The position numbers were made by a program, and so were the translations under genes. The notes below the pieces were generated by a model. The model saw only the letters and a list, made by a program, of their open reading frames with translations, did no database searches and had not been told where the DNA came from. Shown one piece after another: positions 50,620 to 61,547 of a stretch of DNA of 64,000 bases; position 1 is the stretch's first letter; every line of letters starts with the position of its first letter. Source of the stretch: Malacoraja senta (Eukaryota); NCBI GenBank assembly GCA_038087875.1, contig CM075992.1, positions 8,496,001 to 8,560,000 of the forward strand. The letters run 5' to 3'.

Positions 50620-51525
50620 ATGACATCCGTGCTTCTTTTAATCTTTGCAGTGTTGCTCCTGACTCATCGGTTCGCAGAGGGATATGGCTTTGGTAAGGGA
50701 CGATAAACATTTGTGTACACATACTCCACACATCGATGGTGTTTGGAGAGTGTTGATTTAAAGCTGTGCTCTTTAATATTGTGTGCAGTCCATGAAAAGA
50801 GCGTTCAAGGCCCTACCACACACACACACACACACACACACCAACAAATAAACACATACATGGAGGCCTAATTGGTTCAGTGTGGAACGTGAAAGGGATT
50901 ACTGGATTCACATCACTCAAAAGCGGACGGAACCGAAGAGAAGAGGTGGGCAAACGTGCACGTGTCCACATAAGCATAATATATTACAATGTCCATGCAA
51001 TTTAAGAAAGATAATTGTTTTATATTTTCATTTCAAAGGGCAACTGGGCGACTGGGGTGCAAAGCATCCATCCCTCTTAATACAGATACTGTATCATTCC
51101 AGTGAATGTTCCCCGAATAGTATCAAAATATATCCTCCTTCGCTGAGACATTCGCTGAGACTTTCTGCCAAATACAGCCGTCCTTTCCTTTGGACCTTCA
51201 AGAACAAATGCAAACATTCTACATTCACTAGATTCTATTCATTCCGTTGTAATCGTGAACAAGGGGAAGGGTTATTGAGATGCTATTAGTCACCAGAAGT
51301 TGTGTTTTCCGCATTGCACACAATATGTTATTCAACGCTTCCATAGTATTTCGCTGCATGTGTACATAACATGATTTACCGACTGTTTATTCAGCTTTTA
51401 TTTTCTGCCGTACAGCGCTGTGCATACGAATGCATGGATATTGTAAAGCGGATTGCCTCCAAGACTATATCCCAATCGGAGCTTGCGACAACTTAAGATG
51501 TTGCAAATATGTTGGACCGGAATAG
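50620..51525 (+). CDS. Beta-defensin-like gene A, two coding exons join(50620..50692,51416..51525); 60 aa MTSVLLLIFAVLLLTHRFAEG-YGFALCIRMHGYCKADCLQDYIPIGACDNLRCCKYVGPE
   Basis: Manual splicing: ATG at 50620 (gaagATG), hydrophobic signal peptide ending AEG, donor G|GTAAGG at 50693 (phase 1), acceptor ttttattttctgccgtacAG at 51414-51415, TAG at 51523-51525, AATAAA at 51533. Cys spacing C-x6-C-x3-C-x9-C-x4-CC with G-x-C motifs is the vertebrate beta-defensin pattern. Confidence 0.9.
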
Positions 51526-51689
51526 TATCTGTAATAAAGTGTGCATGAATAAATAACAGTTGCATTATCACAGCTTCGCTTTTCCTTGCTTCTCTTTTGA
51601 AGTAACCTGCTGGAAGCAATGTTTATCAGGAAAGAAGCGAAAATCGGCAACAGCAGTCAGAAAAGGCTGCAGAGCAGAATCCATTCACA

Positions 51690-53211
51690 CTTGACTTTGC
51701 CAAGAATTTAAAGGAGGATAGTAAATGCTTCTTTGGGTATGTGAAGAGGAAAAAAGTAGTTAAGACCAAAGTTGGACCCTTGAAGACAGAAAAAGGGTGA
51801 ATTTATTATGGGGAATAAGGAAATGGCAGATAGGTTGAACAGGGACATTGGATCCATCTTCACTAAGGAGGACACAAACAATCTTCCTGATGTACTATTG
51901 GCCAGAGGATCTGGGGTGGCGGAGGAACTGAAGGAAATCCACATTAGGCAGGAAATGGTGTTGGGTAGACTGATGGGTCTGAAGGCTGATAAATCCCCAG
52001 GGCCTGGTGGTCTGCATCCCAGGGTACCTCAGGAGTGACTCTAGATATCGTGGACGCATTGGAGTTGGTTTTCCAATGTTCTACAGATTCACGATCAGTC
52101 AATGTGGATTGGAGGGTAACAAATATTATCCTACTTTTTAAGAAAGGTGTGAGAGAGCAAACAGGGAATTATAGACCAGTTTGCCTGACATCGGTGGAGG
52201 GGAAGATGCTGCAGTCAATCATAAAAGTTTAAATAGCGGCACATTTGGATAGCAGAATGGGTCTGAGTCAGCATGGATTTACAAAGGGAAAATCATGCTT
52301 GACTAATCTTCTGGAATGTTTTGAGGATGTCACTAGGAAAATGGACAAGGGAGAGCCAGTGGATGTAGTGAACCTGGATTTACAGAAAGCATTTCGTAAG
52401 GGTCCACATAGGAGATTAGCGGGCAAAATTTTCGCTCAGGAAAGAAAGAGTAGGGATTAACGGGTCCCGTTCAGAATGGCAGGCAGTGACTAGTGGGGTA
52501 CCACAAGGCTCAATGCTGGGACTGCAGCTATTTACAATATATATCAATGATTTAGATGAAGGGAATCAAAGCAACATTAGCAATTTTGCAGATGACACAA
52601 AACTGGGGATCGGCGATGAGTGTGAACTGTGATGAGGATGCTATGAGAATGCAGGGTGACTTGGACAGGTTGGGTGAGTGGTCAGATGCATGGCAGATGT
52701 AGTTTAATGTGGATAAATGTGAGGTTACCCACTATGACAGCAAAAACAGGAAGGTAGATTATTATTTAAATGGTGTCAAGTTGGGAAAAGTAGAAGTACA
52801 ACAGGATCTGGGGGGTCCTTATTCATCAGTCAATGAAAGTAAGAATGCAGGTACAGCAGGAAGGGTCTCGACCCCAAACGTCGCCTATTTCCTTCGCTCC
52901 ATAGATGCTGCCTCACCCGCTGAGTTTCTCCAGCATTTTTGTCTCCCTTCTATTATCCAGCATCTTGCAGTTACTTCTTATACATGCAGGTACATCAGGC
53001 AGTGAAGAAAGCTTATGGCATGTTGGCCTTCATATCAAGAGGAATTGAGTATAGGAGCAAAGAAGTAATTTGTATAGGGCGCTAGTGAGACCACACCTGG
53101 AGTATTGTGTGCCGTTTTGGTCGCCTAATTTGAGGAACGACATTATTGTCATTGAGAGAGTGCAGCGTAGGTTCACAAGGTTTATTCCCGGGATGGCAGG
53201 TCTGTCATATG
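51690..53211 (+). mobile_element. CR1-clade LINE RT fragment (duplicated at ~61700-63550)
   Basis: KSPGPGGLHPRV, GNYRPVCLTS, SQHGFTKGKSCLTNLLE, FADDTK, LVRPHLEYCV motifs; multiple stops. Confidence 0.85.
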
Positions 53212-54754
53212 ATTCTCTTCTCTTTAGGACCTCTCTAATGATATCTGTCATTGATGTATCTTGACGATGAACATGCCGACAGTGTACAGTTAACGAGTAA
53301 TATTACACAATCAGAGACACAAACACGGCTGGCACGTCGGTCGAGAGGGAGATCACTAGTTGTATTAACTAAATCACAGAACATCCGGACAGTTTATGGA
53401 TCATCTTCAGTGCACAAACCTCCTATAAATCTACCTATAAATCTACCCGCGAACAAAGAAATGTTCCAAGTGGCAATTCAGTTTTCATCCTTCAGTGACA
53501 ATATCACACCAACATAAACTTCGGAGGAAATTCAAACATGAGGGCGAAATACACTTTCGCTGACGCGAACTCAATACTGATCGGGCCCAGAAATTTTAGA
53601 TAATTACATAATTGTTTTGTTTCTACATTAACAGATCAGGAGAAACAAAGAATCTGGTAATGTTCCGGAATGCAGGATATAGTGAGAGGGAGGACGGAGT
53701 GAAATCAGTTTTGGCAAGAAAATGACACAAGGTCTCGTTGGACGAAGAACCATCGGGACCGGATAATCTCTCGGCCTGTGCACTAAATTCAGGGGCCCCA
53801 TAAATAAATCATACCTTGACGTGTTTCCCCAGCGTTCAGTAACACTTTAGGTCATGAGAGACGTCATGCCATTCGGCCCATCTAGTGTTTTCCACCATTC
53901 CATCATGGCTGATCTGTTTTTCCTCCTCAACCCTTTCCCCTTGCAATATTGCCAAAATGTTTGCACCCTTCCTAATGAAAAAAAAAATTCGATCTCCGCT
54001 TTAAATTTACCCAACGACTTGCCGCCGACAACTGGATTACATAAATTCACCCGTGCTCTGGCTAAATATATTCCTGCTCTTCTACATTCTAAACGCAAGT
54101 AGCTTTGTTTTGTGTCCACTGGCCCTAGATTCTCCCACGACTGGAAATATCATCTACATATTCTATCCATCCAGGCATTTCCTTATTCCGTAGGTTTCAA
54201 TGCGGTGCCCCCTCATCCTTCTAATCTCCAGCGAGTACAGCGCACCGCCACAAATCACACCGCATACGTTAACCCAGTCATCCCTCGAATATTTCTCGTT
54301 AACATCCCCTGGACCCTCTCCAACACCAGCACAGGTTTCCTCAGAGGGGGAGATTGAACTGTATTACCTTCCATCACTGTGAGGAATGTGGAGAGCCGCT
54401 GTGGTGGATGTTTATGTTGATTTTATTTGATGTGGTTGTGTGTCATACTGCTTTTCACTTGGATTGGCCGTATGGTGACTCGAATTTCACAGTACATTAA
54501 TTGATACATCCGACAATGAACATATCTTAAATGTTGAATATGCTGCTCGAAACATCTCACAATATTTCTGCCTCCTGACGCTTGGGTATATGTGCCCTGA
54601 CCACCGCCTCATAAAGCATCAGCATTGCATTCTTGCTTTTATGTTCTAGTCCTCTCGAAATGAATGCTAAATTTCCTTTCTGCCGGCCCAACCTATATAT
54701 TTACCATTTGGGAATCCTTCGCTAGAACCCCAATCCCATTGTACCTTCGATTTA

Positions 54755-60195: not shown

Positions 60196-60600
60196 ACAGT
60201 TCGAATATTCTTGCTGAAGATCTAATTCATTGCGCCTGCACACGTTGCAAAATCAGGTGGACACGAATGCCGTGTGGAAGGTGTGTCTGGATGTTTGACA
60301 TGCGGGCTCTTTTAGCCGCTGGAGTCGGTGTGACGGGCTAATCTTGGAATGGGGAACAAGGACACATATTTATTGATGACCACTTCATGTCAGCTAGGTA
60401 AACCATGCTGGCATCTGCTCGGTGTTCCTGAGCCAATGAGGAATAGTCAGACCGGCGGGCGCTTTCTGGAACAAATCAACCACACGCGTGCACCACCATG
60501 CTCGCCAACACAAGGCACCGCCTCACAATACATATAGAGCAAAGTCGACCATCAGACACCATATCTACGCGCATTATTTGATCCTGATCGGGAAGCGAAG

Positions 60601-60801
60601 ATGAGATCCGTGCTTCTTTTAATCTTTGCAGTGTTGCTCCTGACTCATCGGTTCGCAGAGGGAAATAAATTAGGTAAGGGAGGATAAACAATTGTGTACA
60701 CATACTTCGAGACCACACATGATGGTGTTTGGAGAGTGTTGATTTAAAGCTGTGCTCTTTAATATTGTGTGCAGTCCATGAAAAGAGCGTTCAAGGCTCG
60801 A

Positions 60802-60878
<77 letters not shown>

Positions 60879-61547
60879 AACGAATAAACACACACACGGA
60901 GGCCTAATTGGTTCAGTGTGGAACGTGAAAGGATTTACTGGATTCACATCACTCAAAACCGGACCGAACCGAAGAGTGGGAAAGCGTGTTACAATGGGCA
61001 AACGTATTACAATGTCCATGCAATTTAAGAAAGATAATTGTTTTATATTTTCATTTCAAAGGGCGACTGGGCGACTGGGGTGCAAAGGAACGCATCCATC
61101 TCTCTTAATACAGATAATGTATCATTCCAGTGAATGTTCCCCGAACTGTATCAAAATATTTCCTCCTTCGCTGAGGCTTTCTGCCAAATACAGCCGTCCT
61201 TTCCTTTGGACCTTCAAGAACAAATGCAAACATTCTACATTGACTAGATTCTATTCATTCCGTTGTAATCGTGAACAAGGGGAAGGGTTATTGAGATGCT
61301 ATTAGTCACCAGGAGTTGTGTTTTCCGCATTGCACACAATATGTTATTCAACGCTTCCATATTTCGCTGCATATGTAAATAAAATGATTTGCCGACAGTT
61401 TATTCAGCTTTTATTTTCTGCCGTACAGCGGATTGCAGACAAAACGATGGAGTGTGTTGGCTGGATTGCCCCGAATACTTTATGCAAATCGGAACTTGCT
61501 ACAACGAGTTCAGATGTTGCAAAGCAGATTATGGACATCGGCAATAA
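60601..61547 (+). CDS. Beta-defensin-like gene B, join(60601..60673,61429..61547); 63 aa MRSVLLLIFAVLLLTHRFAEG-NKLADCRQNDGVCWLDCPEYFMQIGTCYNEFRCCKADYGHRQ
   Basis: Paralog of gene A: same 73-nt signal exon, G|GTAAGG donor at 60674, same acceptor (AG 61427-61428), C-x6-C-x3-C-x9-C-x5-CC, TAA at 61545-61547 overlapping AATAAA. Confidence 0.9.
60802..60877 (+). repeat. (CA)n microsatellite in the intron of defensin gene B (shorter paralog at ~50817-50841 in gene A)
   Basis: Direct reading. Confidence 0.95.

Follow-up and report, generated by a model that had tools for sequence, protein, structure and literature searches.

Positive selection on mature-peptide codons of two-exon beta-defensin paralogs in Malacoraja senta

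Mammalian beta-defensins are encoded by clustered paralogs that show positive selection. The human genes consist of two exons, with six cysteines in exon 2 and the mature peptide directly following the signal peptide (PMC3978493, section 5). Teleost beta-defensins share the six-cysteine motif and have precursors of 60–77 aa, and their genes comprise three exons with the cysteines split over two; anionic beta-defensins are described in the olive flounder (PMC3978493, section 5). Avian genes have three to four exons, the encoded peptides carry charges from −2.9 to +10, and mean dN is mostly below dS among orthologs (PMC4571063). For cartilaginous fishes, the antimicrobial peptides of sharks and skates listed in section 14 of a 2019 review do not include a defensin (PMC6795676). 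Here, two plus-strand genes, termed A and B, are described in a 64,000-nt window of Malacoraja senta (assembly GCA_038087875.1, contig CM075992.1, positions 8,496,001 to 8,560,000 of the forward strand). Both are two-exon beta-defensin paralogs.

Layout and identity of genes A and B

Gene A spans positions 50620–51525. Its exon 1 (50620–50692), which was omitted from the coordinates of the original prediction, encodes a predicted signal peptide of 21 codons plus three mature codons and ends at a phase-1 GT donor at 50693. A GT..AG intron of 723 nt (50693–51415) separates it from the coding part of exon 2 (51416–51525), which follows the pattern C-X6-C-X3-C-X9-C-X4-CC and closes with the stop codon TAG at 51523–51525; AATAAA occurs at 51533 and 51548. 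Gene B (60601–61547) is composed of exon 1 (60601–60673; predicted signal plus three mature codons, GT donor at 60674), an intron of 755 nt with an expanded CA repeat (60674–61428) and the coding part of exon 2 (61429–61547; C-X6-C-X3-C-X9-C-X5-CC, stop TAA at 61545–61547), with AATAAA at 61558. In both genes the intron is bounded by GT and AG, the frame is intact across the splice and all six cysteines lie within exon 2, as in the human genes. The precursors measure 60–63 aa, within the teleost range. From their sequence, A and B are predicted to be spliced and expressed; the 23 sequencing runs listed include none from RNA, an outcome that is neutral as to expression.

The two genes reside in duplicated plus-strand units at 50209–53211 (A) and 60194–63185 (B), which align at 87.7% including gaps. 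Further downstream, copy C (63550–63859, plus strand) consists of an orphan 3′ intron and exon 2 (from 63744) in which TGA replaces the third Cys; a LINE-like fragment lies directly upstream, its own exon 1 is absent, and it served as a neutral control. A more distantly related copy of the family is represented by an orphan exon 1 on the minus strand at 33078–33150, with a LINE ORF2 fragment downstream (30242–32202). Within the stretches examined, no exon 2 was found for this copy or for the exon-1 copies L008, L014, L025 and L015. The genome as a whole contains at least 23 exon-2 copies.

B scores above the curated cut-off of Pfam family PF00711 (40.1 bits; cut-off 21). A lies below the cut-offs of PF13841 (20.4 bits; cut-off 22.2; E 7e-4) and PF00711 (17.4 bits; cut-off 21; E 5e-3), and DNA comparison identifies it as a direct paralog of B. 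Both share the six-cysteine motif ending in CC and an IGxC before the fourth Cys, the last loop being X4 in A and X5 in B. The model of B (pLDDT 86; the other four models 61–65) has predicted strands at 8–10, 17–22 and 28–32, forming the putative three-stranded beta-sheet of the beta-defensin fold. All top 24 rows of a Foldseek search with this model were beta-defensins, none at E<=0.001, and the five best beta-defensin matches in the VIA fold list scored Z 4.6–5.2, with alpha-defensin folds placed beneath the beta-defensins. The top sequence matches of the family are immune beta-defensins, and its profile best matched mouse mBD-7 (1e4t) in the PDB (E 1.1e-8). A profile search of 1.84 billion proteins returned four matches at E<=0.001, namely three long proteins, each matched over a number of short segments, and a 37-aa defensin-like peptide with the Cys spacing of B. 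Atlas leads, all under 0.9, were beta-defensin clusters without exception; a homologous protein search with B, which is weak since it needs three shared 5-residue words, gave no candidate.

An alpha-defensin identity was rejected, as neither hallmark of that group, the CxC N-terminal motif or the long anionic propiece, is present in A and B. Their N-termini reach a hydropathy peak of 3.6, and signal cleavage is predicted after residue 21, at Ala-Glu-Gly, a position presumably set by the (−3,−1) rule. This would leave five residues before Cys1 (YGFAL in A, NKLAD in B). From spacing and fold, the disulfides are expected to be Cys1–5, Cys2–4 and Cys3–6. A teleost-type beta-defensin was also rejected, the three exons with cysteines over two (PMC3978493, section 5) being absent here.

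Divergence and selection in the mature peptide

Across the first 21 codons A and B differ at 1/63 nt, a nonsynonymous change (Thr2/Arg2), and at the 3′ end of exon 1 they differ at 5 of the final 10 nt. The 32 positions from the junction Ala to CCK comprise 14 with the same residue, in each case encoded by the same codon, 17 with different residues and one codon gap. The counts for the 21 codons and for the 32 positions reproduce the original prediction exactly, as does the onset of divergence at the cleavage site, with fast change from codon 22 on, inside exon 1. Non-coding differences amount to 20/407 upstream, 37/694 in the intron, 12/200 in the first 200 nt downstream and 119/1442 in the distal LINE-derived flank. 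In the exon-2 core 25/90 positions differ, exceeding chance relative to the last 180 nt of the intron (Fisher p 1.5e-8), and 19 of these 25 differences are transversions. The flanks, originally described as highly similar, are more complex than that, the downstream flank of A being recombinant.

Frozen Cys codons and a near-identical signal exon had also been put forward, and neither proved to be a phenomenon in its own right. That the 14 conserved positions share their codons is within chance (0.56 change expected over about 10 synonymous sites, P(0)=0.57), as is the identity of the Cys codons alone (P(0)=0.80). Across the family, the synonymous rate at Cys is 0.91x that of other codons (p 0.84–0.86), where six sites and five changes leave room for a modest reduction. 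The signal difference of 1/63 is unremarkable at the intron rate (P=0.13). Both patterns can therefore be attributed to recent duplication plus ordinary amino-acid constraint.

Positive selection on the mature-peptide codons of A and B was confirmed. With exon 2 only, all 31 codons and one omega, dN is 0.49–0.51 and dS 0.018–0.030 (p 0.014–0.019), with an upper 95% bound on dS of 0.31. The same exon-only test is significant for A2/B (p 0.002–0.003) and not for A/A2 and B/D (p 0.29–0.38). Amino-acid changes between A and B accumulate at about 12x the intron rate (p 7e-14); synonymous sites number only about 21, and Fisher p is 0.019 path-averaged and 0.07 in the worst case. Among the intact copies A, A2, B and D, nonsynonymous change runs at 8.4x and synonymous change at 1.5x (p 0.50) the intron rate. 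In the broken copies C, F, G and E nonsynonymous change is 0.98x intron (p 0.96), which argues against a mutation hotspot. E and H17 carry frameshifts of a single base in homopolymers.

Family-wide models point in the same direction. Over 14 intact copies, omega is 0.51 in the signal and 2.44–2.48 in the non-Cys core of mature codons (p~1e-7 on two trees). Site models (M1a/M2a and M7/M8) give p 4e-7, with about 68% of sites at omega 3.5–3.7, and p 7e-6 when double hits are allowed. The independent pairs I7/I16 and N19/N18 also show dN>dS (p 0.012–0.019). P31 (contig C3) was excluded from all codon analyses because of its differing Cys spacing. The M clade is without acceleration (core 0–2/93 vs intron 3–7%; omega 0.8 for M+J9), so that selection is lineage-specific. 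The six-Cys scaffold is nearly constant, as are two Gly residues and the basic residue preceding CC, and most inter-Cys positions evolve faster than neutral. Contigs in four runs of four other organisms agree with the flanks and become divergent across exon 2. Apart from the worst-case Fisher value, the A/B tests and the family-wide models thus bear out the strong diversifying selection originally proposed for the mature defensin peptide. Two contrary outcomes, dN not exceeding dS or intron divergence and homogenisation of the flanks by conversion, were both tested, and neither refutes it.

Proposed explanation and alternatives

We consider it likely that A and B are recently duplicated beta-defensins with mature codons under positive selection, probably acting as secreted host-defence peptides whose surfaces are re-tuned by microbes. 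A unit was duplicated in tandem, with recombination between units; intact copies retain frames and splice signals, and broken copies drift at the background rate in a birth-and-death process. The predicted signal peptide would be removed and the mature peptide secreted, and positive selection diversifies the inter-Cys loops on a nearly constant scaffold of six cysteines. Microbes are suggested as the selective agent by analogy.

The exon-2 net charge is 0 in A and −2 in B, within a family range of −2 to +10; of the 12 other intact copies, nine carry +4 to +10. The usual positive charge, typical of beta-defensins without defining them, is lost in A and B, which may therefore rely less on charge-driven membrane lysis than cationic paralogs and more on specific targets or immune signalling. 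One could go further and ascribe the selection, itself real, to a non-antimicrobial role in reproduction at the sperm or egg surface or in receptor signalling, with the host or a mate partner as agent. Sperm, testis/pituitary and CCR6-chemotactic beta-defensins are on record (PMC3978493, section 5), and changes towards negative outnumber those towards positive in B vs C (9 to 2, p 0.065) and I7 vs H6 (10 to 1, p 0.012). However, the latter is the only significant pair of nine tested, directional charge loss in A/B is not significant (p 0.065–0.75), and ordinary fish and bird immune clusters include anionic or low-charge members (PMC3978493, section 5; PMC4571063), which makes such a role unlikely.

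It is very improbable that the acceleration is only apparent, with gene conversion having homogenised the flanks of exons that are old and diverged neutrally. Recombination in the array is real and can bias tree-based tests, and the comparison with the intron rate, upwards: informative sites place a breakpoint at 51526–51816, upstream of which A clusters with copy A2 and downstream of which it clusters with copy C, and the distal flank of A is C-type (9/1098 differences from C). In the flanks, (A, A2, B) and (C, F, G, D, E) are set apart by a branch of ~0.005–0.011, which in exon 2 measures ~0.2, and the numbers of outgroup matches are the same for B and C (9 vs 9); the exons might thus be somewhat older than their flanks. 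Old neutral exons would nevertheless need dS at or above dN (about 0.45), beyond the upper 95% bound for A/B and those of 0.13–0.16 for A2/B and B/C. In addition, the breakpoint maps to the 3′ side of the stop codon, exon 1 already contains the onset of fast change, and an AU test on exon 2 does not exclude the flank topology (p 0.21). Recombination is unable to explain dN>dS, and conversion as a full explanation is ruled out by the dS bounds.

Rays and skates include venomous members, and fast evolution of mature peptides is common in toxins. Recruitment as venom or skin toxins, as in platypus defensin-like peptides or crotamine, is nonetheless highly improbable: toxin folds rank lowest among the fold matches of B (Z 2.0–3.2), the top sequence matches are immune beta-defensins, and nothing ties the genes to venom tissue. 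The toxin-like comparison of the original prediction has no support here. A local mutator on the mature-peptide exon with Cys codons protected at the DNA level, an idea formerly advanced for conotoxins, would fit the single codon dominating each Cys column (19–22 of 22 copies), the transversion-rich core and adjacent differences at about twice expectation even in non-coding DNA (21 vs 10.7), but its probability is negligible and it is refuted within the dataset by the synonymous rates (at Cys as given above; core 0.9x signal, p 0.72–0.74), by the five synonymous Cys changes and the loss of Cys in three broken copies, and by the absence of exon acceleration in broken copies.

The family and known systems

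The family to which the two genes belong numbers about twenty copies, and its two-exon layout is like that of mammals. A literature search on cartilaginous-fish defensins, with most subscription journals outside its coverage, found no such cluster; it is apparently undescribed, and annotations of these genes may already exist in the supplements of elasmobranch genome papers, among their gene lists. Its mechanism, a conserved signal, a fixed Cys scaffold, selected loops and birth-and-death duplication, is textbook for defensins and leaves the understanding of the family unchanged. Its value is taxonomic, in a large, fast-evolving family within a slowly evolving lineage, and built-in pseudogene controls make it a clean system for duplication and selection. 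The cluster would also date the two-exon layout and is predicted to supply new natural host-defence peptides. Tentatively, and with considerable doubt, an undescribed ray/skate expansion of ~20 two-exon genes could imply that two exons are ancestral for jawed vertebrates and the three of teleosts derived. Equally tentatively, positive selection within this expansion could have turned strongly cationic peptides into neutral or anionic ones in two or more lineages (A/B and I7), so that a change from killing at membranes to a receptor-directed or reproductive role occurred repeatedly.

Among known systems, the B model resembles mammalian beta-defensins in fold (mouse mBD-7, 1e4t; human hBD-2, 1fd3; TM 0.65–0.70) and crocodile CpoBD13 (7t9q; rmsd 0.7 Å over 31 residues). 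Unlike the mammalian peptides, A and B come from a cartilaginous host, are neutral or anionic and, in the case of A, have a last loop of four residues. The zebra finch has a 22-gene cluster with more nonsynonymous change in recent duplicates, which its authors interpret as relaxation (PMC3161384), whereas whole-peptide omega among the paralogs here is >1. In teleosts, a 2014 review counts four genes at most in any one species (PMC3978493, section 5), far from the exon-2 copy number found here. Conotoxin superfamilies, although of a different fold and family, share a conserved signal, hypervariable inter-Cys loops and position-specific Cys codon usage, for which an explanation at the amino-acid level was likewise reached (PMC3823881); in the present genes, a normal synonymous rate fully explains the Cys codon pattern.

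Genes A and B and their surroundings

Self-comparison of the window delimits a duplicated unit of ~3 kb, one copy of which (50209–53211) carries the two-exon paralog A and the other (60194–63185) its neighbor B. Gene A (exons 50620–50692 and 51416–51525) encodes 60 aa and gene B (exons 60601–60673 and 61429–61547) 63 aa, each with a phase-1 GT..AG intron and an AATAAA beyond the stop codon. Against Pfam PF00711 (cut-off 21) the B peptide reaches 40.1 bits; A matches the Pfam beta-defensin models below the cut-off. A profile of 12 family copies retrieves 14 PDB sequences at E ≤ 0.1, the majority named beta-defensins and the best being mouse mBD-7. 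The AlphaFold2 model of B has three strands (pLDDT 86; remaining four models 61–65) and most resembles hBD-2, mBD-7 and crocodile CpoBD13 (TM 0.65–0.73), with no structural match at E ≤ 0.001, the chain being so short. Sequence, and for B the predicted fold, identify A and B as beta-defensins with putative disulfides and activity.

Fragments on the minus strand (~57900–60400), which we take to resemble an LTR-retrotransposon pol region, reach into the upstream region of B; they include an RNase H-like frame (59688–60221), and sequence matching 60194–60400 is present upstream of A too. An element at 36076–41990 (plus strand) is presumably, from its motifs, a near full-length non-LTR retrotransposon, with an ORF1-like frame of 248 aa, endonuclease- and reverse-transcriptase-like frames in broken pieces, and an A-rich 3′ tail. 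The window also holds a 200-base assembly gap (N; 19577–19776) and the last exons of an ADGRE (EMR1/CD97)-type adhesion GPCR (21276–21476 and ~24060–24200, plus strand; best PDB match ADGRE1, E 2.4e-17). This immune-cell receptor-type gene, ~26 kb from gene A, is a possible synteny anchor.

Diversifying selection on the mature peptide

The original prediction was that a near-identical signal exon precedes hypervariable mature peptides under strong diversifying selection. Its counts proved exact: codons 1–21 differ at 1 of 63 nt, and 14 of the 32 aligned mature positions are identical, with the same codons, while 17 differ and one is a gap. Rapid change begins at codon 22, within exon 1 (5/10 nt), and the exon-2 core differs at 25/90 nt. 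Outside the coding sequence the two units diverge by 4.9% upstream and 5.3% within the intron, rising to 6.0% immediately downstream and 8.3% in the LINE-derived distal flank. Nonsynonymous change in exon 2 runs at 12 times the intron rate and synonymous change does not differ from it; among the four intact close copies (A, A2, B, D) the ratios are 8.4 and 1.5. From the A/B exon only, Cys included, dN is 0.49–0.51 and dS 0.018–0.030 (upper 95% 0.31; p 0.014–0.019), and counting yields 23 nonsynonymous against 2 synonymous differences (Fisher p 0.019, worst case 0.07). Across 14 intact copies, omega is 0.51 over signal codons 1–19 and 2.44–2.48 in the 25 non-Cys core codons (p ~1e-7 on two trees). 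In a custom MG94 implementation with relative branch lengths fixed, M2a and M8 beat their nulls (p 4e-7), placing ~68% of sites at omega 3.5–3.7, with constraint retained at all six Cys, at two Gly and at the basic position preceding CC; selection persists when double-nucleotide changes are allowed (p 7e-6). The broken copies C, F, G and E provide a natural control, exon 2 evolving at 0.98 times their own intron rate. Pair, intron, family and site-model tests agree, the worst-case Fisher count excepted, and strong diversifying selection on the A/B mature peptide is real and well supported.

The pairs I7/I16 and N19/N18 likewise show dN>dS. The exon-only test is not significant for A/A2 and B/D, and the M-clade paralogs (L011, L012, L013) have mature peptides 0–2/93 nt apart beside introns differing by 3–7%, through purifying selection or exon conversion, a regime opposite to that of A/B within the same family; together these results indicate that selection is episodic.

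The 14 identical A/B codons hold ~10 synonymous sites, where 0.56 change is expected at 5.6% divergence (probability of zero 0.57). Family-wide there are five synonymous Cys changes, and Cys codons change synonymously at a fitted 0.91 of the rate of other codons (p 0.85). For the signal match, the intron rate gives P 0.13. The identities described as "frozen" Cys codons and a near-identical signal stand, but no special mechanism is needed for either since chance expectations fit both. PMC3823881 argues similarly for conotoxins.

Recombination and the age of the exon lineages

Recombination between units occurs: at informative sites A clusters with A2 as far as 51526 and, from 51816 onward, with C, from which it differs at only 9/1098 distal flank sites; the breakpoint falls outside the coding exon. 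The exon lineages could be somewhat older than their flanks, which would lower the 8–12-fold ratio to intron. The flanks reject both exon-type topologies (AU p 0.003–0.013), and the stem separating (A, A2, B) from the remaining close copies is very short in flanks and long in exon 2; exon 2 does not reject the flank topology (p 0.21), and derived states on the two sides of that stem number 9 and 9. Neutral ancient divergence is excluded because the upper bounds on dS (0.13–0.31) lie below dN (0.42–0.51), so that recombination in the flanks, itself confirmed, is not the source of dN>dS. Diversifying selection remains the preferred reading.

In all four sequencing runs compared, each from a different other organism, contigs align with the flanks and coverage falls over exon 2. 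One X5 contig has 5 differences/80 nt and 1/56 nt flanking 92 diverged nt, and X1 and X6 each have one contig skipping 111–112 nt; these may be orthologs or paralogs.

Family copies, proposed mechanism and known systems

DNA and family searches, whose counts are lower bounds, and motif scans of loci revealed at least 23 exon-2 copies in the genome: 19 on C16 (near 8.55 Mb and 10.1–10.9 Mb), one on C3249, two on C1162 and a divergent one on C3. Of 22 aligned copies, 14 are intact and eight broken. The C1162 copies match C16 copies at all of ~180 intron sites (0 differences) and are probably an alternative haplotype of two of them. N19 and N20 differ solely by two nucleotides, both in a codon that reads Ser in one and Met in the other, and may thereby show an allelic amino-acid polymorphism. 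Copies E (L005) and H17 (L017) are each broken only by a single additional base within an A run of exon 2; sequencing error may account for it, and both genes may be intact. The orphan exon-2 copies C (63550–63859), F (L002, ~2260–2535) and G (L004, ~4632–4996) sit 2.3–5.2 kb downstream of intact B, A2 and D, respectively, with intact acceptors, and no two share the same Cys lesion. Splicing of these copies to the upstream signal exon as alternative last exons is possible in principle, and their neutral rate suggests decay. An orphan defensin exon 1 lies at 33078–33150 (minus strand), with a LINE ORF2 fragment (30242–32202, plus strand) in its would-be intron. Outside the cluster lie a divergent defensin-like gene that has two exons and a long basic tail (L031; C3 ~68,348,637–68,350,800) and a family signal exon (L015; C9 ~36,876,500), for which no exon 2 was found at the locus.

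Copies arise by tandem duplication and unequal exchange, and those losing an exon or Cys decay at the background rate. The signal peptide (omega 0.5) would direct secretion, and three disulfides of putative pairing would hold a small predicted sheet tolerating nearly any loop residue. Selection, as the statistics show, has fixed new surface residues, the agent by analogy most likely being microbes. Net charge is 0 for A and −2 for B, which lowers the likelihood that either acts by simple cationic lysis, and +4 to +10 in 9/12 other intact copies; for neither gene does a drift towards negative charge reach significance.

A haemoglobin exon from this genome reaches 84 bits with PDB 1cg5, compared with 41 per domain for human-type alpha chains, and 1gcv and 3mkb are among the further matches. 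These three entries come from a stingray and two sharks, which points to an elasmobranch host, probably a ray or skate. The two-exon layout is shared with mammalian beta-defensins, whereas teleosts have three exons and up to four genes per species (PMC3978493). The portion of PMC6795676 available names no shark or skate defensin, and no elasmobranch beta-defensin cluster was found described in the literature searched, most subscription journals lying outside it. Large clusters with faster-evolving duplicates are already known from birds (PMC3161384; PMC4571063). The well-supported A/B observation is real, its mechanism ordinary and its taxon apparently new.
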